58,508 nt of DNA from sequence record PQ850612.1; one strand, written 5' to 3'. Every line of letters begins with the position of its first letter. Position 1 is the first letter of the stretch. The DNA comes from Escherichia phage KarinMuster_Bas82. Below, one piece after another: positions 9,396 to 48,137 of the stretch. Both the position numbers and the translations under genes were made by a program. A model generated the notes under the pieces. That model was not told the origin of the DNA, ran no database searches, and saw nothing but the letters and a program-made list of their open reading frames with translations.

Positions 9396-9430
9396 TGTTT
9401 GATTCCTCAGTGTGTTTCGTTCGTGACAAA

Positions 9431-9474
9431 TGTTAGTGTTACTGCTTGCAATGTGTCAAGAATTATTTTAAAAT
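9431..9474. promoter_or_regulatory. divergent promoter pair built on the conserved element
   Basis: leftward -35 TTGACA with -10 CTAACA; rightward -35 TTGCAA (9446-9451), 17-bp spacer, -10 TAAAAT. Confidence 0.55.
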
Positions 9475-9502
9475 TCTGTCAACGTTAACCAATGAGGAAC
9501 GA

Positions 9503-10243
9503 ATGATGTTTGAACATCCGTGGAATATACCTGCATATGATGCTGAAAGTGAAAAACAATCACTTGACTATCGAATGAAAACACAACAATTAGACTGGAG
9601 TGAAGCGCCAGACTGGGCTACATGTGTTGTTCTTAATAAGACAACAAACACTTTTGCATGGTCTGACGGTTCAATGTACGCACCAATTTTAAGAAATCCA
9701 CCACAAATTATGGAGAATGCTGATGACTTTGAAATCTTTGAAAAACGCTCTTGTGGTCCAGCAACACCTGTCAAAACAAAACTGTTAATGACACCGAAAG
9801 CCCGTGGTAACACTTATGAAGAATTCATCGCAACCGGGTGGAACGACGACCAGTTAGTCGAACATGGTTATGCTATTCGTACTAATGATAAACCACCATT
9901 TGAACAACAGTCATTAGCAGACTTACACTTGGCGCATCTATTCACACCTGTTCAACAACCATCAACAGCGTCTGACTTACTGAAACAGGCTGAACAGCTA
10001 CTGACAGAACGTGGTAAGCAGTATGACACGTCTGGTCAGGAACGTTCGTCAGCTAAAATCGTTGCTGCGTTTAACACAATTACCGGGCGTGACTTAACAC
10101 CAGGTGAAGGGTGGTTATTCCTGATGCTGTTAAAAGCGGTTCGTTTTTATTCCAATACTGAAACACCATATCGTGACAGTCTGGAAGACCTGATCAGCTA
10201 CGCTGCATTACACGCAGAGGAATATCTTAACAATGAACGGTGA
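9503..10243 (+). CDS. hypothetical protein carrying TYEEFIATGWNDDQL motif
   Basis: start re-assigned to MMFEHPW with SD GAGGAA; motif shared with the DUF2815-like protein. Confidence 0.55.
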   Translation: MMFEHPWNIPAYDAESEKQSLDYRMKTQQLDWSEAPDWATCVVLNKTTNTFAWSDGSMYAPILRNPPQIMENADDFEIFEKRSCGPATPVKTKLLMTPKARGNTYEEFIATGWNDDQLVEHGYAIRTNDKPPFEQQSLADLHLAHLFTPVQQPSTASDLLKQAEQLLTERGKQYDTSGQERSSAKIVAAFNTITGRDLTPGEGWLFLMLLKAVRFYSNTETPYRDSLEDLISYAALHAEEYLNNER

Positions 10244-10415
10244 ACAAGCATTCGACCTTCTGGTTAAATACGACATTATTGTTATTCACTGTGACCGTGA
10301 ACAAATCGTTTTCACAGATGATCTTTGTTATGAAGAACCTTATGACGGTGATAAACGGTCTGCCACGATTCGGTTAATCGAACGTGTGGCACGTGACAGA
10401 GGGGAACTATTATAA
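10233..10415 (+). CDS. hypothetical protein
   Basis: 60-aa ORF. Confidence 0.35.
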   Translation: MNGEQAFDLLVKYDIIVIHCDREQIVFTDDLCYEEPYDGDKRSATIRLIERVARDRGELL

Positions 10416-10609
10416 TGGTTCAAACTATTTCTGAATTACTACCCACCGTTTATGGCAACGTGACAGAACTTGCCAGGCGAATTGGGTGTAACAAAGCGAC
10501 AGTTTATAAATATATGGATGACACCAACGGTGAATTTCACGCGGTGGTGAATGGTAAGTTGATGGTTAGACCAGGTTTTAAAGGACGTTATACTCGTGAC
10601 AAAAGATGA
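10415..10609 (+). CDS. hypothetical protein
   Basis: 64-aa ORF. Confidence 0.35.
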   Translation: MVQTISELLPTVYGNVTELARRIGCNKATVYKYMDDTNGEFHAVVNGKLMVRPGFKGRYTRDKR

Positions 10610-27599: not shown

Positions 27600-30123
27600 A
27601 GTCATCTATCACACTAATCCTGTTGAACACGCGGATAACGTTGACTTTGGTGAATGGATGCTGAAACGCTGGCCTGTGGGTACAGTTCGTCCGCGTGGGT
27701 TACTGATTTATAAAAACGATGAGAACATCACCCAAAAGTGGGTTACTGACCCCAGCGTATTAACGGATCCTGATGCCGTTTATCATATTTATGAACTACC
27801 AAAAGGTGGGGTGGTTAGTGCAATAACGAAAGTTATCAGTACGATTTTAAACCCTATTTTAAAATTATTCATGCCGAACACCAGTGCGTCGGCTAATCTT
27901 AAGAACTCACGTTCAGCATCGTCTAACAACGCGCTTCAAGGGCGTACTAATGCTTCGCGACCGGGTGAGCGTATTTCTGATATACGCGGTCGTGTACTGG
28001 CATATCCTGACCTTTTAATGGACTACCGAATCTTCATTGACCGAACAGAATACGAAGTTCAGTTTCTGTGTCTGGGTGCTGGTGAATACGAAGTCGAAGA
28101 CGTTCGTGATGGTATTACACCTGCGGTAAATATCAGTGGTGAAAAATTAGACTTTTATAAAAAAGGTAATGCACCAGGGTATGGTTCTCCATATATGAAT
28201 ATCGGTGGTGCAATTGATATTAACACTTTTCCGATCATGGTTGCTAAGTCATCGAACGAAGCAGACGGATCTGAAGTCAAGCCACCAAACTATGCTGATA
28301 TCAGCAAAGCGAGTTTTAAAATTTACAGCACTGGTGAAATTGACACTACGATTTCCAGTGATGATAACATTACGATTGACTGGTCGGAACGTGCACCAAT
28401 CGGTAGTAAAATTCGTTTATCACAATTTTACAGTTTTACACCTAATACTTTACCGTTAAACACGTATGTACGTAATGACCTATCCGGTGAATATGATGTT
28501 ATTTATGCAGGTGAGAATACGTTAATCATTGATACTACTGGTCGTGAAGGTTGGGATGCTCTGTCTGAAAGTGGTCAGGCTGCATATACACAGGCTTATT
28601 TGCGAAACGATGGTTACTGGGAACTTGAAACCACTGAAGGAAGCGGGAGTATTTTATACAAGTTTTCACCGTCTCTTGACAGTACCACGCCGTATATTGT
28701 CGGGCCTTATCTGATTGACAGTGCGGATAAGTTGATGATTAACTTGTATGCGCAGAACGGTGTGTATAAAACTGATGGTGATATTTATCCGTTTACCTGT
28801 GATTTCCAGGTAGTGTTGTCAGATCCTAATGGTGTGAAAGCGAATGTGACACACTCTATGTCTGTTCGTGGTCGTTATACAGAAGCTGTAGGCAGTTCGT
28901 TAATTGTGGACAACCCTTTTGACGGTCCTGTTAACGTGTCTGTAAGACGACTGTCAAATACAGACAAAGATTTCGAAGGGTCTGTTGTTGATAACATTAA
29001 GTGGCGCGATTTATACGCTATCACGAACGTTTCCCCGCGTTCCTACGGTGATGTGACATTGATCCATACTGTGACAAAAGCAACAAACGCTGCACTGAAA
29101 CAAAAAGAACGTAAATTAAACATGATTGCAACCCGTGTGTATAACGGTGTTGCAAGTAGTAATTTTGCAGACGTTGTAATGTCAATGCACACAGATCCTT
29201 TATTTGGTCGTCGTACATTAGACACAATTGATTGTGACGCTTTATATGCTGTTCAGGAACAACTTCTTGAATATTTTGGTGATCAACGAACAATTGAAGT
29301 TGGTTATACATTTGATAACAACAGTACGACTTACGAAGAAGGATTGGACACTGTCTGTAACACCGTAAACGTTAAACCATATCAGATCGGTAGTGTATTG
29401 TATTTCTGGCCTGAATTACCACAGGAGCACTCTGCAATGCAGTTTGGTCACGCGTTTAAGATCCCTGACAGTGATAAGCGGACACGTTCTTTTGCACCAC
29501 CTAAAGAATATACTGGTGTTCAGGTTAAATATTTCGATCATGATGAAAAATCGTATTTGTATGTAACTAAAGGTGAAGAAACAAACCTTAATAAGATAGA
29601 CCTTGTTGCGTGTCAGTCGCGATATCTTGCAAATATCCGTGCTAATCGTGAGATGAATAAGTTACGTTATCAACGTATCACCCACGAGTGTACAGCGCTT
29701 AGTATCGGGTTACAGGCTACCCCAGGTATGCGTGTGGATATGATTGATAATACCCGTATGAAACAACACGAAGGTATCGTAGTCGATGTTGACGGTTTAA
29801 CGCTTATTCTTAGTGATCCTGTTACGTTCACCACGGGTAATACATACAGTATAACGTTAACCCACCGACTGGGAACACTTGAAAATATTCCTGTAACTGC
29901 CGGGGATGATGAATTTTCAGTGGTAATTGCTTATCAACCGTCTGAAGAAATTTACACGGGGTGGTTACGTGACCGTACCGCATATGTTATCCGTGCTGAT
30001 GACGAACGTAGCAAATTAGCGATGCTTGTTCAGAGTATGGAACCGTCAGGAAGAGACAATAACTATCAGGTAGGGTTAACGTGCATCAATTACGATGCAC
30101 GTTATTATCAGGATGATTTATAA
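27592..30123 (+). CDS. tail tip / central fibre protein (putative)
   Basis: 843 aa, GTG start with SD GGAG, last gene of tail operon. Confidence 0.5.
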   Translation: MSKVIYHTNPVEHADNVDFGEWMLKRWPVGTVRPRGLLIYKNDENITQKWVTDPSVLTDPDAVYHIYELPKGGVVSAITKVISTILNPILKLFMPNTSASANLKNSRSASSNNALQGRTNASRPGERISDIRGRVLAYPDLLMDYRIFIDRTEYEVQFLCLGAGEYEVEDVRDGITPAVNISGEKLDFYKKGNAPGYGSPYMNIGGAIDINTFPIMVAKSSNEADGSEVKPPNYADISKASFKIYSTGEIDTTISSDDNITIDWSERAPIGSKIRLSQFYSFTPNTLPLNTYVRNDLSGEYDVIYAGENTLIIDTTGREGWDALSESGQAAYTQAYLRNDGYWELETTEGSGSILYKFSPSLDSTTPYIVGPYLIDSADKLMINLYAQNGVYKTDGDIYPFTCDFQVVLSDPNGVKANVTHSMSVRGRYTEAVGSSLIVDNPFDGPVNVSVRRLSNTDKDFEGSVVDNIKWRDLYAITNVSPRSYGDVTLIHTVTKATNAALKQKERKLNMIATRVYNGVASSNFADVVMSMHTDPLFGRRTLDTIDCDALYAVQEQLLEYFGDQRTIEVGYTFDNNSTTYEEGLDTVCNTVNVKPYQIGSVLYFWPELPQEHSAMQFGHAFKIPDSDKRTRSFAPPKEYTGVQVKYFDHDEKSYLYVTKGEETNLNKIDLVACQSRYLANIRANREMNKLRYQRITHECTALSIGLQATPGMRVDMIDNTRMKQHEGIVVDVDGLTLILSDPVTFTTGNTYSITLTHRLGTLENIPVTAGDDEFSVVIAYQPSEEIYTGWLRDRTAYVIRADDERSKLAMLVQSMEPSGRDNNYQVGLTCINYDARYYQDDL

Positions 30124-30537
30124 CAAGTTATCTCAACCACTGGCTTGGTTTTTGTTGCAACATCTGAGCAGTGGAAAGACAAGCAGACAGGAGAAAAGAA
30201 AGAACAGACTGAATGGCATCGCGTAGTCATCTTCGGGAAACTTGCTGAAGTTGCAGGAGAATACCTTCGCAAAGGTTCTCAGGTTTATATCGAAGGCCAG
30301 CTACGTACTCATAAGTGGACTGACAGCAACGGCGTAGACCGATATACCACTGAGATTGTCATTTCACAAACGGGAGGCGTTATGCAGATGCTTGGTGGTA
30401 AACGTGATGATTCTGGTCAGCAACAACGCCAGCAATCAGGCCAGCAACCGCAACGACAACAGCAGCAACCAAAACAACAAAGCCAACAAGGAGGAAATGA
30501 GCCATCAATGGACTTCGACGACGACATTCCATTTTGA
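30124..30537 (+). pseudogene. ssb: N-terminally truncated SSB homolog
   Basis: frame open from tail-gene stop; about 85% identical by eye to E. coli SSB from ATSE(S/Q)W to the C-terminal MDFDDDIPF; first ~34 residues absent; no ATG or SD. Confidence 0.65.
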
Positions 30538-30558
30538 AGATATCAGAAGAGTAGAGAA

Positions 30559-30585
30559 AAGGCCCCTTTCGGGGCCTTAATTTTA
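30559..30585. terminator. bidirectional terminator
   Basis: AAGGCCCC-tttc-GGGGCCTT with T-rich flanks. Confidence 0.65.
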
Positions 30586-30674
30586 ATCGCAAAGTAATGC
30601 TTTGGTGAAGTTTGGCGCCCACGGCATCCTGTCAGAAATTACTAAATCTCGAATTAGAATCCCACAAACTGAGA

Positions 30675-32618
30675 TCACATCTGAATCCATGTGTTCCCAT
30701 CAAACATAAAGCCAACCTTATCACCGCCAGCTAACACCTTTGGAGTATTCCCTGTTGTAACGATATGACCGGCAGTAGAAGGCGTTATTGTTAGGTTTTG
30801 CCAGGAGGTGGCGTTTTGTATCCATAATGTATATCCTTCAGGTATTACCGAACCATTGACGGCTGTTGTGTTTATGGTAGCTATCTCAGCTGCCCCTGAC
30901 GGAAGCGTTAGCTTCATGAATGATGAGTTTGTCTGGCTGTATCTTACCGAAAGCACTCCAGAAACACCGCTTGCATCCTGTGTTGCATATCCGGGTCGCG
31001 GAGCGCCGCTTCCGTATATCGCAGCGCGAACATTACTGATGCTGTTCTTGTCAAAAGCGTTGTTAAAAGTCACTCCAGCCTGAGTGACCAGGTCATAGTT
31101 CAAAGTTGGTGTGATATTAACAAGATTTGAAACATTGACTAATGGTCCTATCTTTATAGAGTCATTAACGTGGGTTGATTCGCTAGTAATCCGCCCGTTC
31201 ACATTAGATATATTCAGCAAATTAGCCGCCTGTGCGTCAATAATTTGCCCAGTAACTTCGCCAGCTGAAATATTTGATATGTTTGCGGTGTATATTTTAT
31301 CGACTGCATTAGCCACCAGTGCCAATGACGCTATTGACGCTCCAGAGCTTGCCAGATTGTTAATGTTAATTTCATTGATGACGCCAGTATCAGACTGCAC
31401 CACCATGTCGTATTTGCATCCAGACGTTACAATATTCGATACATTAACCTTCTGTAGTTGAGCGTCTTGCGCAAAAACCCACAAGCCAATATTGCAGTTT
31501 TCATTTCCATCAATGGTAATATTGGTAATATTAGAGAAACTGGCATCACCAAATGCACTATCAGATTTAACAATAACACCTGTGTTTGAGTTTCTGGATA
31601 TTATATTATTCGTGATTGAATAACCACTTTTGTGCGCGAGGCTATATGTATTCTGTATGCCTATGCAATCTTCAATAATTGAATATTTATAACCTTCACA
31701 CAGAATAGAGTGAAATGCATCGGTTGGATTTCGTCCCAGCCCAATGCAGTTTCTTATAACGCAATACTGCCCTGATTTTTCAGGAGCTGAGACGGTGAGA
31801 GCATCACCAGCTGTCGATGGGAACCGGAACGAACCATGATCGACTCCAATATTGCTGATTTGTACGTTTTTGCCGCTAAATCTGAGCGTACCGACGATAA
31901 TGCTGCCATCAAGAAGACGTGTTAGCAATGAATCTGCATAGGGCCGCTTATCGCCAATGATGGTCACATTATCGTATGGTATAGCGTCGCCATTCCAAAC
32001 ATATGTTTTGCATGGAATTCTAAGTGGCAGTCCGTTGGCCGAGGCCCACGAAAGAGCATCTAATATGGCATTGGTGTCATCTGTACTTCCATCACCTTTT
32101 GCGCCAAAGTCATCAGGCGTCTTGTACCCCATTTTGAGGATATCAAACTCTGCCTGTACGGTCCTGCCGGATGTTGTACCAACTAGACCTGCGCCTGTGG
32201 TTAGGGCCAAGTCACTTCTCAATGAAGCATCACCAACACTAACCCACGCTCCTAATTTAACCTCCCCTGTGCTATCTGGAGTTGAGCCGGCTGGAACGAT
32301 TTTTGGAAACCCCCCGTCCCATCGGTAATATTCTCCTGTCGACTTATATCGCAACACCTGGTTAGGCAATGTTAATGTCGCGCCATCTTCGAAGCTATCC
32401 ATTGTGATATAGCCAACCTGAGATATAGCCTGATTGTACAGGTTTTCTAAACCATCAAGCGTCTTGTTGGTAACTGATTGATCACGGATCGTATCGGTAA
32501 CATCCAACGCATGATTACCGTTAGCATCACGACTTTTCGCAACGTGTTCAATATGTAAAATCGCTTGTTTGCCTGTTTTCAAATCATCAGCACTGATATA
32601 ATCGTTACAGTTAGCCAT
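30675..32618 (-). CDS. tail fibre / tailspike with pectate-lyase-3-like beta-helix
   Basis: start at MANCNDY (SD GGAG); FGAKGDGSTDDTNAI motif and repetitive beta-helix-like body. Confidence 0.7.
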   Translation of the reverse strand: MANCNDYISADDLKTGKQAILHIEHVAKSRDANGNHALDVTDTIRDQSVTNKTLDGLENLYNQAISQVGYITMDSFEDGATLTLPNQVLRYKSTGEYYRWDGGFPKIVPAGSTPDSTGEVKLGAWVSVGDASLRSDLALTTGAGLVGTTSGRTVQAEFDILKMGYKTPDDFGAKGDGSTDDTNAILDALSWASANGLPLRIPCKTYVWNGDAIPYDNVTIIGDKRPYADSLLTRLLDGSIIVGTLRFSGKNVQISNIGVDHGSFRFPSTAGDALTVSAPEKSGQYCVIRNCIGLGRNPTDAFHSILCEGYKYSIIEDCIGIQNTYSLAHKSGYSITNNIISRNSNTGVIVKSDSAFGDASFSNITNITIDGNENCNIGLWVFAQDAQLQKVNVSNIVTSGCKYDMVVQSDTGVINEININNLASSGASIASLALVANAVDKIYTANISNISAGEVTGQIIDAQAANLLNISNVNGRITSESTHVNDSIKIGPLVNVSNLVNITPTLNYDLVTQAGVTFNNAFDKNSISNVRAAIYGSGAPRPGYATQDASGVSGVLSVRYSQTNSSFMKLTLPSGAAEIATINTTAVNGSVIPEGYTLWIQNATSWQNLTITPSTAGHIVTTGNTPKVLAGGDKVGFMFDGNTWIQM

Positions 32619-36013: not shown

Positions 36014-37870
36014 TTACCGAAGTGGTGCAACGAGTTTTTCAGCTTCTTTGATGTAAAAATCATAATTGAGCGTTGCCCGGTTAAAACGTTTCATGTCGTT
36101 GCACTCAGTGGTCAACCAACCTTTACACACTGACATGCGGCGTTCAGGCGCATCAGGGTTCAGTTTCAGTGATTTTGCCAGCGGTGGCATGACTTTTGTC
36201 AACGGTGCACCATCTGTACTGACGTAATAACGGGTAATGTTTTGAACCTGTTTATCACCCCATAGTAATTTGCTGTTACGCGGTACTTTCGTCACCAACA
36301 TAAAATCGTGAATGTCTTCGTGTGATGTTATAAAATCACGAATGTCTTTATTGTGTACCAGTGCTGCTTCAGCCGCTTTTGCGACAACCTGCATGCTGTG
36401 GTTTTGATGCCAACCCAGATCAACGCTGTGACAATAAGCGCCTTTACGTTTAACTTTCTTACCGCCTTCATAAACAGCGATGTAATTATTTACATCGCGG
36501 ATAAACATCACGTCATAAATCGCTTCTTCAAGCTGGAGTTTAGTTAATTTTTCCCACGCGTGACGAACCTGTTCTACTTGTCCGGTAAATACTCGTGGTA
36601 CGTAAACTGTAAGACCATCTGTGTTAGCCTGGATCATGGATAAACCAGGGATTTTCAGAAGTTCTTCAGCCAACATGCACAAAAGTAACTGTCCGTTAAT
36701 CGTAATAGCCATTGTATAAGCAGGATCGTAGAATGGGCTGTATACGTTATTACTGTCACCATACACACCGTTTAACGCCAGTTTTAACATTGCGTTTTCT
36801 GGTGTACCTTTCGGGTAACTGGAACGCATGTCATAAACATTTTTATAAATGGTGCAAAATTGTTTACCCAGATGTGCCGGATAAAGTTCATTACTGATCG
36901 CAAGGTTCGGGTAAAAACTGGCAACGTCCAGATCGATGATCACATAATTTTCAGTGGATCTTATAGTTTGAGATTCAATAGACCCGTGGATACCACCCGT
37001 ACCAAAATCAAACGAGAACCCGTTAATGTCTGCACTTAAATCTGTAAATACACCTTTTGTTTCAGTGATGACCTGCTGACGTAACCAGTTAAGAACACGA
37101 TTAAATTCAGGCTGTTCAAAACGGACATAAGGGAAAATCACGCTGTTTAATGCGATTGATAGTCTGTGCGTCTGTCGTGGTTTTCTACTACCCGGTTCGA
37201 AACATTGAATACCTGATTTTTCAAGTTCCATGATGAAATAGTCTTTACCGATTTTCGTGTCATTATGGTTCATGAAATTACGACCGTATTTAGCAGAAAG
37301 TTCACGACGAAAATCGATCAGCTTTTTACTGTGTTTATAAAACATCAAAGTCGCTTTTAAATCGTGTATCAGATATTGACGAAGCGTATCAATTTGAGAA
37401 TCGGTTAAGTAAGTCCCTGGCGTAAATGGGAGGTCTTCAATGTTTTCCATTCTCATATTGAATTCAAGTGTTTTCAGACTTGTTCGTTTTGCCTGATTGT
37501 CGAAATGATGAATTTTATACAAATCAAGCTGGGGGACTATCCAGTCTTTTTCCCACACCATATGAGCAAAACGATTTTCATCACCGGCGTTAATTATCGA
37601 ATCGCCTTTTTTGTAAATGTCTGCGTTGGTGATATACATGATGTTGTTCAAAATAGAATGCTGAACAGGATAGTCGTAACCCAGATTGTTATAACCAACT
37701 TCTTCAGCACGATGTTCACGCAAATATTCCGTGAAGAAGTAAAAAGCCTGACGATCATCGCGACGATGTGAAATCTCAAAAATATAAGGCGTTTCAGTTA
37801 ACGCGTGAATAGCACCGAACAGGAAAACATTAGGATAGTTTTCAATATCATGAACGTAAGCATCTAACAT
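36014..37870 (-). CDS. DNA polymerase, compact family-B-like
   Basis: 618 aa; Exo I-like VHDIEN, motif A-like DLDVASFYPNL, motif B-like KLALNGVYG, motif C-like ANTDG. Confidence 0.65.
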   Translation of the reverse strand: MLDAYVHDIENYPNVFLFGAIHALTETPYIFEISHRRDDRQAFYFFTEYLREHRAEEVGYNNLGYDYPVQHSILNNIMYITNADIYKKGDSIINAGDENRFAHMVWEKDWIVPQLDLYKIHHFDNQAKRTSLKTLEFNMRMENIEDLPFTPGTYLTDSQIDTLRQYLIHDLKATLMFYKHSKKLIDFRRELSAKYGRNFMNHNDTKIGKDYFIMELEKSGIQCFEPGSRKPRQTHRLSIALNSVIFPYVRFEQPEFNRVLNWLRQQVITETKGVFTDLSADINGFSFDFGTGGIHGSIESQTIRSTENYVIIDLDVASFYPNLAISNELYPAHLGKQFCTIYKNVYDMRSSYPKGTPENAMLKLALNGVYGDSNNVYSPFYDPAYTMAITINGQLLLCMLAEELLKIPGLSMIQANTDGLTVYVPRVFTGQVEQVRHAWEKLTKLQLEEAIYDVMFIRDVNNYIAVYEGGKKVKRKGAYCHSVDLGWHQNHSMQVVAKAAEAALVHNKDIRDFITSHEDIHDFMLVTKVPRNSKLLWGDKQVQNITRYYVSTDGAPLTKVMPPLAKSLKLNPDAPERRMSVCKGWLTTECNDMKRFNRATLNYDFYIKEAEKLVAPLR

Positions 37871-37950: not shown

Positions 37951-38997
37951 TCAGTAACCGTTACCGTTGAGAAAATTCGGGGCCGGAGTAGTCATTACCA
38001 TATAACCGTTAGCGATCAGTTGTTCATCGTTCCAACCTTGCGAGATAAACTGTTCATAAGTAGCACCACCTGCTTTTTCAGTCATTACCTTCACAGGTGC
38101 TGCCGCTGGTGTAGGCGCTGCTACAGGTGCTGCCGCTGGTGTAGGCGCTGCTACAGGTGCTGCCGCTGGTGTAGGCGCTGCTACAGGTGCTGCCGCTGGT
38201 GTAGGCGCTGCTACAGGTGCTGCCGCTGGTGTAGGCGCTGCTACAGGTGCTGCCGCTGGTGTAGGCGCTGCTACAGGTGCTGCCGCTGGTGTAGGCGCTG
38301 CTACAGGTGCTGCCGCTGGTGTAGGCGCTGCTACAGGTGCTGCCGCTGGTGTAGGCGCTGCTACAGGTGCTGCCGCTGGTGTTACGCCGATCGGACGTGC
38401 ACCTTCAGGCATTGCAGGAGCCGCACCGAACACAGAGGCAGGAGCCGGACCGGAAATGATTTCTTCACCTGCATAAAGCAATTGTGCCATTTCCATGTTG
38501 ATATATACGCCAGCCTGATTACCTGTACGACCGTTTGCAACAGATGATCCGCTGATACGGTAGTAATAACCTTTTTTCGCCAGATTTTTATCAATAACTG
38601 GCTGGTACGCTGCGTTATAAACCGGACACGCGTCAATAGCCACGTTGCGTGAGAAACCAATTACCCAGTGACCAGCATAACCAGTTTTACTCGCATGTTT
38701 CGGATCATCACCGTTAATAATTTTCCATGCGAAAGTAGGTTGTTGTGGTTCGCCGTTCACATAGTGTGAGTTCGCCGCTCGCATAATCGCCTGGAATACC
38801 GCACCCAGTTCACCTTGTTCTTCCCACCAGTTCGCCGCTGTTTTAGGAAACGCCAGACCAACCCACCAGTTGTGTTTTTCAGGTGCTAACGGTTTATTTT
38901 CGTGGTCATGAGTGTTGATATCGAAAAAAGAACCGCCAACCAGACGACCAACCGGAGTTACAAAAGATTCTTTCTGTGCCATGTTATTAACCTTCAT
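37951..38997 (-). CDS. DUF2815-like protein with (PAAAPVAAPT)n linker
   Basis: 348 aa; alternative start MAQKESF at 38982; nine perfect decapeptide repeats; C-terminal TYEQFISQGWNDEQL. Confidence 0.55.
   Translation of the reverse strand: MKVNNMAQKESFVTPVGRLVGGSFFDINTHDHENKPLAPEKHNWWVGLAFPKTAANWWEEQGELGAVFQAIMRAANSHYVNGEPQQPTFAWKIINGDDPKHASKTGYAGHWVIGFSRNVAIDACPVYNAAYQPVIDKNLAKKGYYYRISGSSVANGRTGNQAGVYINMEMAQLLYAGEEIISGPAPASVFGAAPAMPEGARPIGVTPAAAPVAAPTPAAAPVAAPTPAAAPVAAPTPAAAPVAAPTPAAAPVAAPTPAAAPVAAPTPAAAPVAAPTPAAAPVAAPTPAAAPVAAPTPAAAPVKVMTEKAGGATYEQFISQGWNDEQLIANGYMVMTTPAPNFLNGNGY
38089..38382 (-). repeat. 30-bp perfect tandem repeat, 9 full copies plus partial ends
   Basis: identical 30-mers TGCCGCTGGTGTAGGCGCTGCTACAGGTGC, in-frame. 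Confidence 0.9.
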
Positions 38998-40143
38998 TTA
39001 AAGTGGACGTGCGCCAGTCGGCATCGTCACGGGTTTATTAAAAACAGATTCTGCCAGTGTGCTGTGACCTTTACGCGGGTCACTGTCAGGTACTAAAACT
39101 GGCTGACCTTCTGGTTTTGTCGTACACATGTCAACAAGTGCCGGAGGCAGTGATTTTTCCAGTGTTGACAACGGTTTTAATTTACGTTCGTACAATGTTT
39201 CAGGGTTTACACCAAACATGGGTGCAGCACCGATCAGTTTTCCTTCGTCCGTAAGCTGACGTCGGGTTTGCTTTGTTGCAAGTTTAAAACCCGGTAAAGC
39301 CTTACCCATGCGAACAAAATGTAACCCCTGAGTATGTAACGCTGTTTTTGCTTCAGAAGAACGTGTATACAATTCTTCAAGAAGTGCCAGACGACGCGCT
39401 ACTTCTTCTGGCGTAAGTGATGGTGGTGCATCAAGAACAGTAGCCAATTCTAAAACCCTCTCATACATCGCCGGACACATACCACGCGCCGGACAGTAAT
39501 GACAATGACTACCAACATTTAACGGTGCGTCTGGTTTATGTGCTTCGTTAAACCCGTGTTTAAATCGTTCAGCCCATTCCATCAATGTTGCCCGGTTAAA
39601 CTCCCATCGTCTTACAGGTCCGAGTGGGTGATAAGCCCGTGGCTGAACAATTGTGAACACAACACGCTTAACGGTGTCGATGCAACGTTGGTCCAGTGCG
39701 TAATAGACCCCCTGTGAGTTATCAACTGCTTCAACTGCGACATGACCGTATTTATAATCCCATACGTAAAGCGTATCAGTATTAAAGTCATACCAGCAAT
39801 AATCACAGGTTCCATACTGACCGGGTAACAACCAGTCAATGTAAATGCGAACTTCTGAAAACAGCGGATCGAGTTTCGCACCAACTGAAAGAACATCTGT
39901 TATAAAGTCATCCGCGTAAACATGCATGTCTTCAGTAACCTGAACACCGTTAGGAGCAAGACACGGCATTAATGGCGGTTTGCCTTTAATCTTCTGTTCT
40001 AACACCCAGTGTCCGGCTGTACCTTCTTCAGCACTGGGTGATGATGGTTCTACATAATCAATCCGCTGTGACAGTTGAACGCTACCCGGACAAGCTAACC
40101 AACGTTTTGATCCACTGGCACTAAAGGTAGCGTGACTGGTCAT
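38998..40143 (-). CDS. PD-(D/E)XK exonuclease, Cas4/DUF2800-like
   Basis: 381 aa; N-terminal SGSKRWLACPGS and C-terminal Cys cluster CHYCPARGMCPA. Confidence 0.6.
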   Translation of the reverse strand: MTSHATFSASGSKRWLACPGSVQLSQRIDYVEPSSPSAEEGTAGHWVLEQKIKGKPPLMPCLAPNGVQVTEDMHVYADDFITDVLSVGAKLDPLFSEVRIYIDWLLPGQYGTCDYCWYDFNTDTLYVWDYKYGHVAVEAVDNSQGVYYALDQRCIDTVKRVVFTIVQPRAYHPLGPVRRWEFNRATLMEWAERFKHGFNEAHKPDAPLNVGSHCHYCPARGMCPAMYERVLELATVLDAPPSLTPEEVARRLALLEELYTRSSEAKTALHTQGLHFVRMGKALPGFKLATKQTRRQLTDEGKLIGAAPMFGVNPETLYERKLKPLSTLEKSLPPALVDMCTTKPEGQPVLVPDSDPRKGHSTLAESVFNKPVTMPTGARPL

Positions 40144-40913
40144 CAGAATGCCCCACCCATTTGTTTAACAGATTCAGCCTGACCAACAATGTTTTCAGCA
40201 TCAGCCGGGGCCGCGTTAATGCGTTCAATCAGTTCGATGATAGATTTCAGTTTTACTGGGTCGTCAATCTGCATCACGTTCTGAGTTTCATACAGTCCCA
40301 TGATTCGCTGACTTAATGGCGCAGCACGGTCACCCGTAATTTGTCCAAACATCTGCATCAGTGCTGACTGAAGAACCTGTGTGTTATAAACTTTAGCCGG
40401 ATCCGTGGTTACAGGTTGCTCGACAGGCGCGACTGGTGCAGCCGGTGCTGCTGGTACAACTGGAGCTACCGGAGCGGCAGGAACCGCTGGAGCAGGATCA
40501 ACAGGTGCTACATAACCCGGTGCAAGTTCTGCAGGTCCGGTATAACGCCCTGCTTCAACTGCTTCAGCAATAAGTTCACGTTTAACACCGTCAACAAACG
40601 CTTCATCCAGTTTTTTCTTTTGACGCCACAGACCATCACCTTTGTTCAGGGATTTACTGTCAGTGTGGATACGTGGATCGTGGCGCAAACCCCATTTGTC
40701 GAACTCTTCAGTGCTGGTTTCGTTATCGTCAACATCTTCAGTTGGTGCAGATACAACAGGCAGTGATTCAGCAACGACAGTCACGGTTTCTTTAGTGATA
40801 CCATCACCCTGAGCAGTCATGAGTGGTGCAGCACCAGTCGCAATCGCTGCTGCCAGATTGTTGATCGCAGTTTCCAGACCCGGAGCAGTTACAAGTAATT
40901 TAACTTCGAACAT
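40143..40913 (-). CDS. hypothetical protein with Pro/Ala/Val-rich linker
   Basis: 256 aa, SD GAGGAA, first gene after tandem promoters. Confidence 0.5.
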   Translation of the reverse strand: MFEVKLLVTAPGLETAINNLAAAIATGAAPLMTAQGDGITKETVTVVAESLPVVSAPTEDVDDNETSTEEFDKWGLRHDPRIHTDSKSLNKGDGLWRQKKKLDEAFVDGVKRELIAEAVEAGRYTGPAELAPGYVAPVDPAPAVPAAPVAPVVPAAPAAPVAPVEQPVTTDPAKVYNTQVLQSALMQMFGQITGDRAAPLSQRIMGLYETQNVMQIDDPVKLKSIIELIERINAAPADAENIVGQAESVKQMGGAF

Positions 40914-41083: not shown

Positions 41084-42745
41084 ATGAAAGCTCGTTATTA
41101 TCAGACTGAAGCTGTCAATAACGTATGTCAGGCGTGGTCAAGCGGTGCTGACGACGTGATTCTTGTGCTTCCCACGGGGGCAGGAAAAACGTTCTGTATG
41201 TCTGAACTGGTAAAAACAAGAGACGGTGTAAAAGTCATCCAGGCACACCGTAAAGAACTGGTTAGTCAAATCGCAATGGCTGTTGCTCGCCAGGGATTAC
41301 CACACAGATTTATAGCGCAAAAAGATACTGTTAAGTTTGCAACTAATCAGCAGATGAAAACGCTTGGTTACAGTACCTATTCCCCCGGTGCTGACATCGT
41401 TATTACCAGTTCACAAACGTTAAGAACAAAACAGTACGAACGATGGTACAACGACGTGTCTCTTGTATTCAGCGACGAAGCGCATCACCTGGTGCGTGGC
41501 ACACAGTGGGGAGACTGCCGGGAAAAATTCCCTAACGCTAAAGGTCTGGGTGTTACAGCTACACCGATCCGTGCTGACGGTAAAGGCTTAGGTCGTCATG
41601 CGTCAGGTTACGCAGATCAGATGATCATTGGTCCGTCAATGCGTGAGTTAATCAGTCAACAACATCTGGCTGATTATCGTCTGATTATGGCTGAAACAGA
41701 CCTGGAATTAACTGCAGAAATGATTTCCCATACCACGGGTGATTACAAACCTTCTGCGTTAAAAAAAGCGATGGAAGATTCAAACATTGTTGGTGATACC
41801 GTTAGCACGTGGAAAACGTATGCAGATGGTTTACTCACTGTTGTGTTTACGTGTGATGTGGATTCTGCTGAAGCACTGGCACAAGAATTTCGCGATGCGG
41901 GTATTCCAGCAGAGGCGATCAGCTCACGAAACAGCAATCAGGAACGAGCGGATATCCTGGAACGTTTTGAACGACGTAAAACACTCGTGCTGTGTAACAA
42001 CGATTTATTCGGTGAAGGATACGACTGTCCTGCAATGGAATGTGCTGTAATGGACCGTCCAACAGAATCTTACTCTTTGTTTGTACAACAGATGGGTCGT
42101 CCGTTGCGTTTCAAACCGGGTAAAAAAGCACTGATTATTGATAAAGTCGGTAATGTTCGTCGATTTCTGGCCCGTGGTTTTCCACTTCCCGATCAGCATT
42201 ACAACTGGTCTTTAGACGACCGTGACCGTCGTTCATCAAACAGCAGTGGGAACAGTAACACAACATGTACAAACAAGGGTGATCCTGATAACGGTATTCC
42301 ACCGTGTCTGAAGCCTTATCCGTCTGGTCTTCCGTGCTGTCCGTATTGTGGTCATGTTCCTGAAAAAGTCGAACGCTCAGGCCCGGATCGTGTAGAAGGT
42401 AATTTACGTGAATTGACACCTGAAGAACTGGAAGAATTACGCCGGGCAGTTGTGATAATCGACCGTGATCCTGTTGCGGTAAAAGAACAAATGTTGAACG
42501 CTGGTGCACCCCCTGTTGCCGCTTACAGTGCAATGAAAAACATTCAGGCAATGAACGATGCACAGCGTAAGTTACGCGGCATGATTACCACATGGGCCGG
42601 TATTCAGCGTGACAAAGGTATACCCGTTGATGACGCTTACAAGATGTTTTACAGGGTGTTTGGTGTTGATGTGCTCAGTGCTCAGGGATTACGCACTCAT
42701 GAAGCTAATGAACTCGCTGCAAGGGTTGCAAGTTCATTAATCTGA
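41084..42745 (+). CDS. SF2 DEAD/DEAH-type helicase
   Basis: 553 aa; Walker A LPTGAGKT, Walker B FSDEAHH. Confidence 0.8.
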   Translation: MKARYYQTEAVNNVCQAWSSGADDVILVLPTGAGKTFCMSELVKTRDGVKVIQAHRKELVSQIAMAVARQGLPHRFIAQKDTVKFATNQQMKTLGYSTYSPGADIVITSSQTLRTKQYERWYNDVSLVFSDEAHHLVRGTQWGDCREKFPNAKGLGVTATPIRADGKGLGRHASGYADQMIIGPSMRELISQQHLADYRLIMAETDLELTAEMISHTTGDYKPSALKKAMEDSNIVGDTVSTWKTYADGLLTVVFTCDVDSAEALAQEFRDAGIPAEAISSRNSNQERADILERFERRKTLVLCNNDLFGEGYDCPAMECAVMDRPTESYSLFVQQMGRPLRFKPGKKALIIDKVGNVRRFLARGFPLPDQHYNWSLDDRDRRSSNSSGNSNTTCTNKGDPDNGIPPCLKPYPSGLPCCPYCGHVPEKVERSGPDRVEGNLRELTPEELEELRRAVVIIDRDPVAVKEQMLNAGAPPVAAYSAMKNIQAMNDAQRKLRGMITTWAGIQRDKGIPVDDAYKMFYRVFGVDVLSAQGLRTHEANELAARVASSLI

Positions 42746-42786: not shown

Positions 42787-43293
42787 ATGCGTGATTTGAT
42801 GGTTGACATTGAAACGTGTGGTACTAAACCGGGTTGTGCAGTGCTGTCAATTGGCGCTGTTTACTTTGACCGTCAGGGTAATATTGGTGAAACGTTTTAC
42901 GCATCAATGGGTTTTAATGCACTTGCTTATGGTCACACAGACCCTGACACTATGAAGTGGTGGTCGCAGCAGTCAGAACAAGCACAAAAAGATGCTTTTG
43001 GTGGTACTGCTGATCCTGTTCAGGTTGCTAAAGATTTTGCCAAATTCATCTGGCACGATGCTAAACCGTGGGGCAATGGTTCCACATTCGATATCACTAT
43101 TCTGGAAGCATGGTTTAATGCGATTGGTGTTCGTTGCCCGTGGAAGTTCTGGAACGTCCGTGATGTTCGTACCGCTGTTGATTTGCTGGGTATTAACCCG
43201 AAAGAATTTACCCGTGACGGTACTTACCACAATGCGTTAGACGACTGTTTACACCAGATTAAATATCTTACTAACGGGACTAAAACATTATGA
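42787..43293 (+). CDS. DnaQ-like 3'-5' exonuclease
   Basis: 168 aa; VDIETCG and YHNALDD motifs. Confidence 0.7.
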   Translation: MRDLMVDIETCGTKPGCAVLSIGAVYFDRQGNIGETFYASMGFNALAYGHTDPDTMKWWSQQSEQAQKDAFGGTADPVQVAKDFAKFIWHDAKPWGNGSTFDITILEAWFNAIGVRCPWKFWNVRDVRTAVDLLGINPKEFTRDGTYHNALDDCLHQIKYLTNGTKTL

Positions 43294-43954: not shown

Positions 43955-46309
43955 ATGAAAGGGTTACTGAACCGTAAACAGTGGGTCATGTGGCGACTTG
44001 AGACAGTTGCCGATCGTCCAAAACCAACGAAAGTACCATACAGTCCAGTACACGGTTACAAAGCCAGTACCACTAACCCTAACGACTGGTCTGACTATCA
44101 CACCGCGTTAGGTATGGCGCAAATGTACGGTATGTCTGGTGTTGGTTTTGTATTCACAGAAAACGATCCGTACTTCTTTATTGATGTCGATAACTGTCTG
44201 GTAGATCAGGCAACAGCCACATGGTCACCACTGGCGCATGAATTCGTAAACCGTTTTCCAAATGCGTACACCGAAGTAAGCCAGTCAGGAACAGGTTTGC
44301 ACATCATCTGTGCTTATACCAGCATACCGGAAGGTTTTAACAGTCTGAACGACCAGAAAACCGGGCTGGAAATGTACTGGCGTGATCGTTTCGTCGCGAT
44401 GACGCTCACGGGTAATGGTGATGTTGATATTGATTATACCCAGGGCATTCATGATTCTATTGCCCGGTATGGTCGTATCCGTTCAGACCGTTCCGCACGC
44501 TGGACAACAGCACCCTGTGATGACTGGTCAGGACCGACAGACGACGATGAACTGATTAAAATGGCGTTAAATTCGTCCAGTGCTGCTTCAGTATTTGGCA
44601 ATAAAGCGTCATTTGCGGATCTGTGGAATGCAAACGTTGAACGCCTGTCTGTGTCATATCCTAGTGACCAGGGGAAAGACTACAACGCATCAGCAGCAGA
44701 TGCTGCCCTGTGTTCACACCTTGCGTTCTGGACCGGGAAAGATTGCGAACGTATTGAACGATTGTTTAACCGTTCCGGGCTGGTTCGTGGTAAATGGACA
44801 GATCGTCAGGACTACCGTGAAAACACAATTCTGGGCGCTGTGGAACGTTGTGATACGGTTTATCGTAGTCAACCGACGCTGACACCAGAACTGATGAAAG
44901 CAGTCACACCAGCGCCTACCGTCGTTCCTAATGGTGGAACACCTGCGTATATGAGTGTGAAACCCGGTGAAGGTGCATATGGTTCAAACCACACGGTTAA
45001 CGCATCCACGTTCGTTAATAACTATTATCCGAACAACACATTGATTTTCGTCCAGCAACAGCCGTACCGGTTCAACGGTCGCGTGTGGGAACGTGTGAGT
45101 GAAGATGAACTGAAACATCAGATATCTATGGCAATGCTCGCCAGCGAACCAAAAGCTGACGTAATTAACGGTACGTACAAGGTTTTGTCGTATTTATTCA
45201 CACGCGCTGATCGTGAGCTTGGAACATGGCCAGGTGTTGATGTGTCACACTACATTGTATGTCAGAACGGGATACTGGATGTACACACGGGTAAATGTGA
45301 TGCACATAACCCGGATTTCTTTACGACCAGTATTTTACCGTATAGCTACGATCCGTTTGCCCGTGCGCCAGCATTTGAACAGTTTTTAAATACAACTCTG
45401 GAAGGTGATCAGGAACGTATTGCACTGTTGCAGGAATGGCTGGGTTACATGCTTGTCAACTCATATGACTATCAGAAAGCGATGCTGTTGATTGGTGCAC
45501 CACGTTCCGGTAAAGGTACGATTGGTCGCATCATTCAGGCACTGGTAGGTGATGAAGCGTATGCAGGGGTCACACTGGAGGGTTTAGCTAGTGATGCGGT
45601 ACTTGAAACTGTGTTGGATAAATCTGTGCTGTTTATTGGTGATGCTCACAGTGTGTCCGGGCCTGATCGCAACCGAATTCTGGACCGTTTCAAATCTATT
45701 ACAGGTTGTGATGCGATTCCGGTTAATCGTAAATATAAAGGTGCATGGAACGGTCGTTTACCGGGACGTATGACACTGGCTGCTAACAACATTCCGGCAT
45801 TTGCTGATGATTCAGGTGCAATGGCTAACCGTTTGCTGATCCTGCCATTCAACATTTCGTTCCTGGGTCGTGAAGATACCACTCTGGAAGCACGACTGAT
45901 GAAAGAACTACCGGGGATCTGTAACTGGGCGATTGAAGGTTTACAACGGTTACGTGCTAACGGACGGTTTACTGAACCAAAAGCAAGTCTGGAAGAACGT
46001 CAGGAAATTATGGATCAACAATCACCACTTAGAAGTTTTATCAGAGATTGTTGCGAATTGGTATCTGATGGTGAGGTGCACACTGAAGAACTCTATGGTC
46101 GTTATCGTCTCTGGAAAACACAGGAAGGTGGTCCAGCAATGACTAAAACTGCATTTAGTCGGGCATTTAAATCCACCCTTCGTGGTAAAGTGAAAAAAGA
46201 CGTCGTTAATATAAATAACGTTCGACTAAACGGTTTCAGGGGTATTCGTCTTCTCCCTTTTCAGTCAACAGCTAATGTAGTGCCTTTCCCACCTGCGAGT
46301 AACGGTTAG
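43955..46309 (+). CDS. DNA primase (prim-pol N-domain plus P4-type ATPase domain)
   Basis: 784 aa; FFIDVDNC and Walker A GAPRSGKGT. Confidence 0.75.
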   Translation: MKGLLNRKQWVMWRLETVADRPKPTKVPYSPVHGYKASTTNPNDWSDYHTALGMAQMYGMSGVGFVFTENDPYFFIDVDNCLVDQATATWSPLAHEFVNRFPNAYTEVSQSGTGLHIICAYTSIPEGFNSLNDQKTGLEMYWRDRFVAMTLTGNGDVDIDYTQGIHDSIARYGRIRSDRSARWTTAPCDDWSGPTDDDELIKMALNSSSAASVFGNKASFADLWNANVERLSVSYPSDQGKDYNASAADAALCSHLAFWTGKDCERIERLFNRSGLVRGKWTDRQDYRENTILGAVERCDTVYRSQPTLTPELMKAVTPAPTVVPNGGTPAYMSVKPGEGAYGSNHTVNASTFVNNYYPNNTLIFVQQQPYRFNGRVWERVSEDELKHQISMAMLASEPKADVINGTYKVLSYLFTRADRELGTWPGVDVSHYIVCQNGILDVHTGKCDAHNPDFFTTSILPYSYDPFARAPAFEQFLNTTLEGDQERIALLQEWLGYMLVNSYDYQKAMLLIGAPRSGKGTIGRIIQALVGDEAYAGVTLEGLASDAVLETVLDKSVLFIGDAHSVSGPDRNRILDRFKSITGCDAIPVNRKYKGAWNGRLPGRMTLAANNIPAFADDSGAMANRLLILPFNISFLGREDTTLEARLMKELPGICNWAIEGLQRLRANGRFTEPKASLEERQEIMDQQSPLRSFIRDCCELVSDGEVHTEELYGRYRLWKTQEGGPAMTKTAFSRAFKSTLRGKVKKDVVNINNVRLNGFRGIRLLPFQSTANVVPFPPASNG

Positions 46310-46614: not shown

Positions 46615-46854
46615 ATGGGTGGTCGTGGATCATGTCGTCGAACTCGTTCATTACGCTGCAGTAAGTGTTATGAGCGAAACCTACGTGATTATTTATTAGG
46701 GTTTGGTACACGCAACTGGGAAAACGTTGAAGTTACTGGTGAAAATGGAAACACTTACACCTGCCGTTGTGAATCCTGTGGTCACACTTATCAAACAACA
46801 TCAGCGGCTGCACGTCGCGAATGGAAATGGAAGAAAAACCATGTTGACAACTAG
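46615..46854 (+). CDS. small Cys-pair protein
   Basis: 79 aa; CSKC ... CRCESC. Confidence 0.45.
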   Translation: MGGRGSCRRTRSLRCSKCYERNLRDYLLGFGTRNWENVEVTGENGNTYTCRCESCGHTYQTTSAAARREWKWKKNHVDN

Positions 46855-47098
46855 TATTTTCATACTTGTATTTTGGATAATCATCGTTATACGTATAATT
46901 ATTTGTGCTGTCATACAAAGAAAAATGATTGATTTTTATTATTCTGATAAAAGTGGTTGGGACACACATCAACAGAGTATGTTTGATGCTTACCCACAAT
47001 TAGATACTTTCAAAATGATTTTTAAATTCTGGGTATGGCCTATGTCAAAATTCTATCCTGAATACAGGAAAGGTAAAAACCATGAAAAACATATTTGA
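46841..47098 (+). CDS. membrane protein
   Basis: start at MLTTSIF; hydrophobic N-terminus. Confidence 0.4.
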   Translation: MLTTSIFILVFWIIIVIRIIICAVIQRKMIDFYYSDKSGWDTHQQSMFDAYPQLDTFKMIFKFWVWPMSKFYPEYRKGKNHEKHI

Positions 47099-47279
47099 CC
47101 GTTTAATTACTGTTATCGTATTTCTTGTATCCGTAACGCTCGCGTCTTGTATTGTCGGACTAATGACCCGTGGTAATCATGCGGAAACACCGTGGTGGTT
47201 TCTGGCAGGTATTGGATTATTAGCGGCTGCGGCATCAATTGGTGCTTGCATGTGGGGAGTGAAAAACGATCATGACTGA
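47082..47279 (+). CDS. small membrane protein
   Basis: 65 aa, two hydrophobic segments. Confidence 0.45.
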   Translation: MKNIFDRLITVIVFLVSVTLASCIVGLMTRGNHAETPWWFLAGIGLLAAAASIGACMWGVKNDHD

Positions 47280-47487
47280 ATTCGGTGCTGTAATCAAAAA
47301 AGAAGACCGTTATGCACATATTGATACCCGGATTACCTGGGTTGATATCAGTGAAGCTACTCTGTTCAGTTCAACTTACATGGCTGGTGTTGCACTTAAA
47401 TCACTTCGCGATCAGGGTTTCAATTGCAGAAAAGTAACAATTGCTCCTGTTAAAATCACGCGGATCGTAGAGGAAACAGAAGGATGA
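47272..47487 (+). CDS. hypothetical protein
   Basis: 71-aa ORF. Confidence 0.4.
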   Translation: MTEFGAVIKKEDRYAHIDTRITWVDISEATLFSSTYMAGVALKSLRDQGFNCRKVTIAPVKITRIVEETEG

Positions 47488-47511
47488 ATATTGCTGGTAG
47501 GAGTATTGATT

Positions 47512-47709
47512 ATGCAAGTAGGTAATTGTTATTTATATCCTAAAACAGATCTGTTTGAAAAATGTTGGGTGGTAATAACCTATTCAAATCCGTGTCAGGG
47601 AGTTATCATGTGGGATGATGGTAAATGTCAGACTTCAATGATAAATGATCAGGACATGCGAGGCTGTCAATTAGTTGGATGTAATATGAAGATGAGATCA
47701 ACACAATGA
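47512..47709 (+). CDS. hypothetical protein
   Basis: start at MQVGNCY with SD AGGAG. Confidence 0.4.
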   Translation: MQVGNCYLYPKTDLFEKCWVVITYSNPCQGVIMWDDGKCQTSMINDQDMRGCQLVGCNMKMRSTQ

Positions 47710-48101
47710 TAATCGTCGTCACAGGTGGTCGTGACTTCAACGACAGAGTAGCAGTATTTTCCGCGTTAGGACTACTTCACAAACAATTCCCCATTACCGA
47801 ACTAATTGAAGGTGGTGCGTCAGGTGTTGATAACCTGTGTAAGCAATGGGCGCAGTTACACAGTATTCCTGTGCGTAGTTGCCCGGCAGCGTGGGACGAT
47901 CTGACTGTACCTGGTGCGGTTGTAAAACAGGGCAAGCACGGGCCTTATAACGCTGTTGCAGGTCATCAACGTAATCAGGCGATGTTAGAGGGTGAGCCAC
48001 GCCCTACATATGGTGTTGTGTTCCCCGGTGGGCGTGGTACTGCTGATATGCATCGTCGCATGTTGAAAGCTGGTTTAACTGTGTGGGTTCCATATCCTTA
48101 A
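47706..48101 (+). CDS. SLOG-type Rossmann protein (DprA/Smf- or DUF2493-like)
   Basis: 131 aa; VVTGGRDF and EGGASGVD motifs. Confidence 0.45.
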   Translation: MIIVVTGGRDFNDRVAVFSALGLLHKQFPITELIEGGASGVDNLCKQWAQLHSIPVRSCPAAWDDLTVPGAVVKQGKHGPYNAVAGHQRNQAMLEGEPRPTYGVVFPGGRGTADMHRRMLKAGLTVWVPYP

Positions 48102-48137
48102 AATAATTCTTGACAGATTACCAACCATCCCCGATAA
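48101..48137 (+). promoter_or_regulatory. conserved phage promoter (rightward)
   Basis: AAAATAATTCTTGACAGATTAC; 17-bp spacer; -10 GATAAT. Confidence 0.65.

Follow-up and report, generated by a model that had tools for sequence, protein, structure and literature searches.

Two unrelated proteins share a small module

The window analyzed here, i.e., the whole 58,508-nucleotide (nt) stretch of DNA from Escherichia phage KarinMuster_Bas82 (sequence record PQ850612.1), encodes two proteins that carry the same small module. Protein 1 (246 residues; 9503-10243, + strand) consists of an N-terminal domain, the module, and a DUF6378 domain, also named nucleotide modification associated domain 1 (NMAD1). 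Protein 2 (348 residues; 37951-38997, − strand) is a predicted SSB (a protein that binds single-stranded DNA, ssDNA) of the Enc34/T7-gp2.5 type, in which a Pro/Ala repeat linker leads to the module and a short tail. The initial annotation of this DNA had claimed that a peptide of about 20 residues is common to both proteins, and both of the sequences that it quoted are present: ARGNTYEEFIATGWNDDQLVEHGY at residues 100-123 of protein 1 (nt 9800-9871, +) and AGGATYEQFISQGWNDEQLIANGY at residues 309-332 of protein 2 (nt 38002-38073, −), the latter lying ~30-50 nt from where it had been placed (near 37951-38040). A BLASTP comparison of protein 1 with protein 2 returned a single segment of 39 residues (residues 95-133 and 304-342, respectively), with 21 of 39 positions identical (54%) and 28 positive (72%; E = 9e-12), and no further similarity between the two proteins outside it. 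The unit is larger than first described: it spans ~35 residues and is predicted by AlphaFold2 (AF2) to fold by itself. Copy 1, LLMTPKARGNTYEEFIATGWNDDQLVEHGYAIRT, occupies 9779-9883 (+; residues 93-127 of protein 1) and scores 60.6 bits against a hidden Markov model (HMM) of the module, and copy 2, VKVMTEKAGGATYEQFISQGWNDEQLIANGYMVMT, occupies 37990-38094 (−; residues 302-336 of protein 2) and scores 72.3 bits. Protein 2 also does not end with the shared peptide, as had been stated, since 16 more residues follow, MVMTTPAPNFLNGNGY.

The motif search that the initial annotation had proposed bore out the sharing, in that the window holds exactly two copies (cores at 9812-9871, +, and 38002-38061, −), both of which are conserved in related phages, and the derived profile found 628 protein clusters (see below). 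Neither a six-frame fuzzy and pattern scan nor an HMM scan of all stop-to-stop open reading frames (ORFs) yielded a third copy in the window. At the DNA level, the two copies are 59% identical (69 of 117 positions), which indicates that they are old and that their similarity has been maintained at the protein level. This low identity, together with the retention of both copies in orthologues from other phages, rules out that the second copy arose by recent duplication or through faulty assembly. The two carriers proved otherwise unrelated, as had been claimed: BLASTP and domain scans set an oligonucleotide/oligosaccharide-binding (OB)-fold SSB against a β-rich N-terminal domain plus DUF6378. 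A larger homologous domain shared by both proteins is likewise ruled out by the unrelated flanks (BLASTP, Pfam, and PHROG scans), and the similarity is hence that of a discrete module.

In the SSB, the module sits behind a repeat linker

Protein 2 matches PHROG 7011, “Gp2.5-like ssDNA binding protein,” with E = 1.1e-100, and its residues 66-191 match the Pfam family PF10991 (Enc34_ssDNA-bd) with 27.3 bits (cut-off, 26; E = 3.4e-6). By its OB domain (residues 1-195; 38413-38997, −; Pfam Enc34_ssDNA-bd, 202 homologues), protein 2 therefore belongs, as judged from sequence, to the Enc34/T7 gp2.5-type SSB family, with ssDNA binding as a predicted activity. The linker that follows is encoded by a perfect 30–base pair (bp) tandem repeat at 38093-38382 (−), for which Tandem Repeats Finder reported 9.7 copies with 100% matches, and reads (PAAAPVAAPT)n. 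Close, near-identical homologues of this SSB from other phages and contigs range from 261 to 348 residues in length, which indicates that the repeat varies in copy number and that the length of the tether is polymorphic. Of the SSB gene, several IMG/VR contigs retain just the 3′ end, placed at a contig end, as if the assembly breaks at or near the 30-bp repeat. On the opposite strand, a 175-residue ORF at 38020-38547 (+) with CRWCRRCYR repeats mirrors the linker repeat and is almost certainly no gene.

After the module, protein 2 closes with the tail TPAPNFLNGNGY (residues 337-348; 37954-37989, −), which bears a second short motif, PAPxF(L/A)xG(G/N)GY, and for which AF2 gave a predicted local distance difference test (pLDDT) score of ~53 or less and no secondary structure. 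In SSBs of Klebsiella, Salmonella, and Proteus phages, the same motif follows the module, and its place in other SSBs (P0012-P0022) is upstream of a module that has diverged; from these arrangements, it appears to be a separate element carried by the same tether. Protein 2 lacks a long acidic unstructured tail, its last 49 residues containing four D/E and two K. Nor did we find the tip of bacterial SSBs (SSB-Ct; DDDIPF), as the window SSB ends in NFLNGNGY and the module of protein 1 is internal. On reading the sequences, a penta- or hexapeptide that would bind the β-clamp (QL[SD]LF or similar; Q-x-x-(L/M)-x-F) was absent from both the module consensus and the tail.

In the DUF6378 protein, the module is optional

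The start of protein 1 at the ATG at 9503 is backed by homologues of 246 to 247 residues with 94-99% identity. Its N-terminal domain (residues 20-91) matches PHROG 32742 and is β-rich, and its C-terminal region (residues 142-246; 9926-10243, +) is covered by PF19905, PHROG 474, and PHROG 9871. Specifically, PF19905 (DUF6378) matches residues 159-239 with 29 bits, above the cut-off of 27.1, which places protein 1 in this family, and PHROG 474 matches residues 142-244. PF19905 was present in all of the 120 listed homologues of protein 1, and the DUF6378 region is nearly invariant across 82 homologues. Sequence and profile searches found no PDB relative of this region, and in an AF2 model of whole protein 1 it was predicted poorly (pLDDT, 35-54). 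We found no characterized member of the DUF6378/NMAD1 family in the literature and database sources searched; names such as “phosphofructokinase” and “nucleotide kinase” on homologues of protein 1 are annotation labels only.

The module HMM matched 74 of the 120 listed DUF6378 homologue clusters and left 46 without a module. About a dozen of these 74 have just a remnant of the C-terminal half, VTRVNDDQLVEHGY, so that ~62 carry the full module, and in one homologue (P0352) the module stands at the extreme N terminus. The region around the gene (~9400-10450) resembles Sashavirus/9NA-like siphophages of Escherichia, Salmonella, and Klebsiella, with Sashavirus BDX09P1 (94.5%) and Escherichia phage AVIO78A (92%) as best matches, and the gene order of the window is as in Salmonella phage Sasha. 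Among such phages, the full module is found in AVIO78A, BDX09P1, 9NA (which carries a VTVTRVNDDRL segment in addition), Carvaje, and KP13-27; PDP46 has the half remnant alone; and in Sasha the N-terminal domain forms a gene of its own, followed by a different protein of 70 residues (“nucleotide kinase”). The module is optional and movable within the DUF6378 family. The DUF6378 gene as a whole is a recombination mosaic, in which the N-terminal domain occurs with or without the module and with or without DUF6378.

The module is predicted to fold independently

We modeled residues 300-348 of the SSB with AF2 from an alignment of 54 sequences and obtained a mean pLDDT of 82.8, with residues 1-37 of the construct at 85-94 and the last 12 residues at low confidence. 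The predicted elements of copy 2 are a strand (302-305, VKVM), a helix (314-319, YEQFIS), a second helix (324-330, DEQLIAN), and a closing strand (333-336, MVMT). Copy 1, modeled within whole protein 1, showed strands at 94-96 and 124-126 around helices at 105-110 and 115-120 (pLDDT, 71-84), flanked by low-confidence linkers at residues 85-91 and 129-160 (pLDDT < 50). Two independent AF2 runs thus gave the same pattern, and the module is predicted to be a unit of ~35 residues with the order strand-helix-helix-strand that folds independently.

The consensus of the module reads (V/Q)MTxKAxGATYEQFIAxGWTDxQLIxxGYM and, in the window SSB, can be viewed as two 10-residue units, GATYEQFISQ and GWNDEQLIAN, followed by GY. 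Among 349 unique copies, the strongest positions were M4, T5, A8, G10, T12, Y13, E14, G20, W21, D23, L26, and G30. Twelve positions reached at least 3 bits; the W is conserved at 97% and the three G at 79, 95, and 98%. Large hydrophobic or aromatic residues are conserved at ~9 positions within ~33 residues. The module is mildly acidic, with a mean net charge of −1.6, a negative charge in 292 of the 349 unique copies, and an acidic second helix.

Comparison with known families returned little. Pfam gave nothing for either window copy at E ≤ 10, and 55 diverse module copies gave just two weak “Decapeptide” matches, the best at E = 0.069. In PHROGs, the module appears only as the C-terminal end of the SSB profile 7011. 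Foldseek found no fold match in the PDB (best E = 2.1) and, among viral models, other module carriers only. Searches of the literature on DUF2815, DUF6378, DUF669, NMAD, and phage 9NA yielded no description of the module. The module is thus a new, uncharacterized mini-domain family with no Pfam or PDB entry.

The module is widespread and often repeated

From the two window copies, a profile was built and run exhaustively with HMMER over 1.84 billion cluster representatives (50% identity), which gave 628 matching proteins at E ≤ 1e-3, of which 66 reached E ≤ 1e-10; a word-indexed protein search with a four-sequence alignment of ~50-residue module segments gave nothing usable. Architectures were counted for the 146 top matches shorter than 1200 residues. 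Two to four copies of the module occurred in 75 of these 146 representatives, with Pro/Ala-rich linkers between the copies, and in 81 the last copy lay within six residues of the C terminus. The 30 residues upstream of the module are 50-62% Pro plus Ala, with a mean of 50% over the 146 representatives.

The main carriers are Enc34/T7-gp2.5-type SSBs, where the module is usually C-terminal. The module is borne by 95 of the 120 homologues listed for the window SSB, in 80 of them at the C-terminal end (within six residues) and in 90 as a single copy; some others carry a divergent variant of two decapeptides, G(V)AYTEAALxAxGHTDxMIATYP. When carriers were grouped after masking the module, PF10991 SSBs formed a cluster of 52 and a more distant cluster of 19. 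A further nine representatives are DUF669 proteins, a family predicted to comprise SSBs akin to that of N4, with tails that are typically acidic (Kazlauskas et al., PMC4889955). Another group of eight SSB-like proteins (PHROG 862) has long Pro/Gln linkers, and seven of its members end in DD[IL]PF (P0125, P0130, P0170, P0209, P0247, P0252, and P0256); in total, nine carriers end in this tip, downstream of the module. A different C-terminal tip, PPWA(K/R), was seen on DUF669 carriers (P0167-P0254). The remaining carriers comprise the DUF6378 proteins, one DUF7173 protein, and several unannotated families. One of the latter (P0142, P0147, P0159, P0176, P0182, P0189, P0203, P0219, P0223, P0237, and P0245) combines a short domain at the N terminus with acidic linkers and two to three modules in its N-terminal part, followed by a conserved block W(V/I)DSAGxVWDxxxH...KG(V/I)FKKRRG and a conserved C-terminal (D/E)LxxLIKDW(G/S).

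All module-bearing phage records come from phages of Proteobacteria, with Salmonella, Klebsiella, Escherichia, Proteus, Vibrio, Burkholderia, Shewanella, Yersinia, Pseudoalteromonas, Stenotrophomonas, Aeromonas, and Morganella as hosts. A scan of bacterial and archaeal genomes confirmed no locus, a weak negative given that one restrictive pattern was used. The module can be classed as a putative C-terminal interaction element of SSBs and is far more general than the two copies of the window.

An SSB and a second protein of its phage recur as carriers

The combination seen in the window was found again in two other genomes. Shewanella phage 1/44 has two divergent modules in its DUF2815 SSB (S144_54) and one in the middle of a protein of ~500 residues (S144_73), encoded at 36371-37699 and 46664-48130, and Vibrio phage 1.049.O has two divergent modules in its DUF2815 SSB (NVP1049O_35) and one in the middle of another ~500-residue protein (NVP1049O_49), encoded at 29891-31237 and 38570-40153. 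Neither S144_73 nor NVP1049O_49 has a Pfam or PHROG match, and neither DUF6378 nor any other family was detected in them; NVP1049O_49, the sole one of the pair searched against the PDB, gave no match there. These two pairs indicate that the module came to be shared by an SSB and a further protein of its phage more than once, independently and with a different second protein. Within genomes, the copies of a pair read GWNDEQL/GWNDDQL in the window versus GWTDQAM/GWDDDQL in 9NA, Carvaje, and KP13-27. These sequences hint at parallel change of the two copies within genomes, the two related lineages concerned being too few to count.

In the window, the SSB gene lies in a replication block. It is flanked by a gene for a DNA polymerase (36014-37870, −), so called in related phages, whose 618-residue product has no Pfam-A match at E ≤ 0.001, and by a gene for a DUF2800/PD-(D/E)XK nuclease (38998-40143, −), an order that is equal in BcepB1A, Vibrio phage 1.021.A, and Shewanella phage 1/44. 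A superfamily 2 (SF2) helicase (41084-42745, +), a 3′-5′ exonuclease (42787-43293, +), and an NrS-1-type primase-polymerase (prim-pol) fused to a D5_N helicase (43955-46309, +) complete the block. We inspected the neighborhoods of carriers in BcepB1A, Vibrio phages 1.021.A and 1.049.O, MZH0603, Shewanella phage 1/44, Stenotrophomonas phage B2, and 18 IMG/VR loci, and found the DUF2800 nuclease, SF2 helicase, prim-pol/helicase, and polymerase, i.e., the usual block for this SSB family.

Possible role of the module

The data show a module that is discrete and conserved, occurs widely on tethers and often in tandem, has a mildly acidic character, and has been shuffled among protein families. The initial annotation had proposed a docking peptide for a common partner; of this idea, the notion of a discrete module, C-terminal in SSBs behind a flexible Pro/Ala linker, stands and gains from the independent recurrence in an SSB plus one other protein, whereas that of a short linear peptide does not. 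The analogy to SSB-tip and clamp-binding motifs fails as well, given a predicted fold of ~35 residues that in some carriers co-occurs with DD[IL]PF tips. The reading that we favor, and to which we give about half of our confidence, is that of a tethered protein-protein docking domain that brings accessory proteins to the location of the SSB. The module would act as a docking bead on flexible Pro/Ala-rich tethers. In the SSB, the bead would stand where Enc34 ORF6 and T7 gp2.5 have their acidic tail; placed at the tip of a ~100-residue linker, it could reach and hold a partner at the fork in replication or recombination. The DUF6378 protein would have acquired the same bead between its two domains, and the same bead might give it the same address, so that it would be brought to the partner, or the place, of the SSB. 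It is from the architecture only that we infer docking, and with it the binding of a protein by the module and one common partner for both carriers.

Several observations weigh against this docking. A search of the carriers' gene neighborhoods for a binding partner singled out no candidate. The fold of the module is a prediction only. The module also co-occurs with other C-terminal tips (DD[IL]PF, PPWAK, GNGY, and IKDW), so that it may act otherwise, for instance in linker mechanics or by self-association.

Self-association would make the module a “sticker,” in which tandem copies render the SSB multivalent and thereby promote cooperative coating of ssDNA or a replication condensate, with the module-bearing DUF6378 protein as a client. 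The two to four tandem copies between Pro/Ala linkers in half of the carriers fit this picture, as do the large hydrophobic and aromatic positions, which may exceed what so small a unit buries, the presence of the module, in three lineages, both in an SSB and in another protein of the genome, and the hinted parallel change within genome pairs. Yet nearly all module-bearing homologues of the window SSB (90 of 95) have one copy only, AF2 is confident of the module as a monomer, and the parallel change is a hint from just two related lineages, and we regard a sticker as unlikely, though worth keeping in view. Alternatively, the module could dock into the ssDNA-binding cleft of the OB fold, in cis or in trans, and so regulate DNA binding, with the DUF6378 protein riding on the SSB. 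It is mildly acidic and placed like the tails of T7 gp2.5 and Enc34, which touch neighboring OB domains (PMC5686142). We consider such binding quite improbable, as the conservation of the module far exceeds that of the OB domains themselves (~30-35% identity within PF10991, with DUF669 being another family), and as the module occurs also in proteins without a detectable SSB domain and is much less acidic than true tails, with 4 acidic residues in the last 49 of protein 2 versus 16 in the last 29 of Enc34 (PMC5686142).

We give little credence to a passive structural bead, a stable mini-fold that would do no more than adjust how long, stiff, or protease-resistant the disordered linker is and that would spread by recombination with no specific ligand. 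The strong conservation (12 positions at 3 bits or more across hundreds of clusters) argues against such a bead, as does the retention of the module in non-SSB proteins in three lineages. Its embedding in highly variable repeat linkers and the mosaic DUF6378 gene with half-module remnants, from which one may conclude that recombination moves the module, would agree with it; so would the terminal motifs DD[IL]PF, PPWAK, or GNGY if these are the real interaction tips, except that in most SSBs the module itself is C-terminal with no tip after it. A nucleic acid–binding element akin to a helix-turn-helix (HTH) or helix-hairpin-helix (HhH), adding DNA contacts, is very improbable. The succession helix-G-aromatic-(T/S)-helix superficially recalls HTH/HhH turns, and one carrier has a weak Pfam match to SAM_SMF (5e-4), but the prevalent negative charge (292 of 349 modules) and the acidic second helix speak against DNA contacts, none of the 55 modules gave a match to an HTH or HhH family at E ≤ 10, and no structural match was found. 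Conservation across OB families, non-SSB carriers, the terminal position, and the negative charge thus weaken the OB-fold, passive-bead, and nucleic acid–binding explanations.

A broader reading, which is possible but which we would not expect to hold, is that the module serves as a general “address tag” of Proteobacteria phages. A folded sticker, displayed singly or in tandem on flexible tethers by SSBs of at least three OB families, would then have been captured repeatedly by unrelated accessory proteins (DUF6378, the ~500-residue proteins of Shewanella phage 1/44 and Vibrio phage 1.049.O, and the LIKDW family) and would assemble a replication/DNA-modification compartment around SSB-coated DNA through module-module or module-hub binding, in parallel to and independent of the acidic tip. 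Should the module be a docking domain, its partner would reveal how phages couple accessory enzymes, here of a nucleotide-modification-associated family, to the fork, and the module itself would provide a compact, portable recruitment tag. It offers an annotation handle for many “hypothetical” phage proteins, and the question is approachable with a short synthetic or recombinant peptide.

Comparison with known systems

By eye, the β-α-α-β order of elements and a G-x-T-h-x-x-h...G-h-(S/T/N)-x-x-x-L pattern recall LysM; a LysM-like fold is ruled out, as no profile or fold match was obtained. The decapeptide repeats of Legionella IcmE/DotG (PF25296) offer another resemblance, in that the unit G-(aromatic)-T-x-E-x-(L/F)-(I/L)-x-x is like the DotG repeat AGFTAKELKD. 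DotG (PDB 7muc chain AG, residues ~220-730) was the sole PDB sequence match of the module profile, with a summed E of 2.7e-6 and a per-repeat E of ~50, which indicates that the score arises from adding many repeats. PF25296 in turn matched 5 of 71 full carriers (best E = 1.5e-4); among 55 isolated modules, it matched two, with E = 0.069 at best. Unlike the module, the DotG repeats form long arrays without flanking strands, and their context is a secretion system rather than phage SSBs. On these sequence comparisons, homology of the module to the DotG repeats is not established.

In design, the module is reminiscent of the peripheral subunit-binding domain (PSBD) of 2-oxo-acid dehydrogenase E2, an all-helical docking domain of ~35 residues that folds autonomously and is carried on Ala/Pro-rich swinging linkers. 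The likeness lies in the very small size and the Ala/Pro-rich linkers, whereas the two short terminal strands predicted for the module and the unrelated biological context set the two apart. With no E3_binding Pfam match at E ≤ 10 and no PDB fold match, the PSBD is rejected as a relative and is a conceptual analogue only.

The C-terminal tails of SSBs organize the proteins of replication, recombination, and repair, and the paradigm so far is a disordered acidic peptide. The module points to another solution, widespread in phages, namely a conserved, predicted-folded bead on Pro/Ala tethers that turns up again in non-SSB proteins encoded by the same genomes. SSB interaction tails are normally C-terminal, and those of Enc34 ORF6 and T7 gp2.5 are unstructured and acidic (16 acidic residues in the last 29 of Enc34) and contact polymerase, primase-helicase, and neighboring OB domains (PMC5686142). 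The module resembles these tails and the SSB-Ct of Escherichia coli in its C-terminal place on an OB-fold SSB behind a flexible linker and in the job expected of it, i.e., contacts with replication and recombination proteins, and protein 2 shares its OB family with Enc34 ORF6. The tails, however, are unstructured and strongly acidic with a hydrophobic end, whereas the module has ~35 residues, is predicted to be folded, is only mildly acidic, is often repeated, and occurs also inside non-SSB proteins. Its position upstream of a genuine DD[IL]PF tip in some carriers indicates that module and tip are separate elements.

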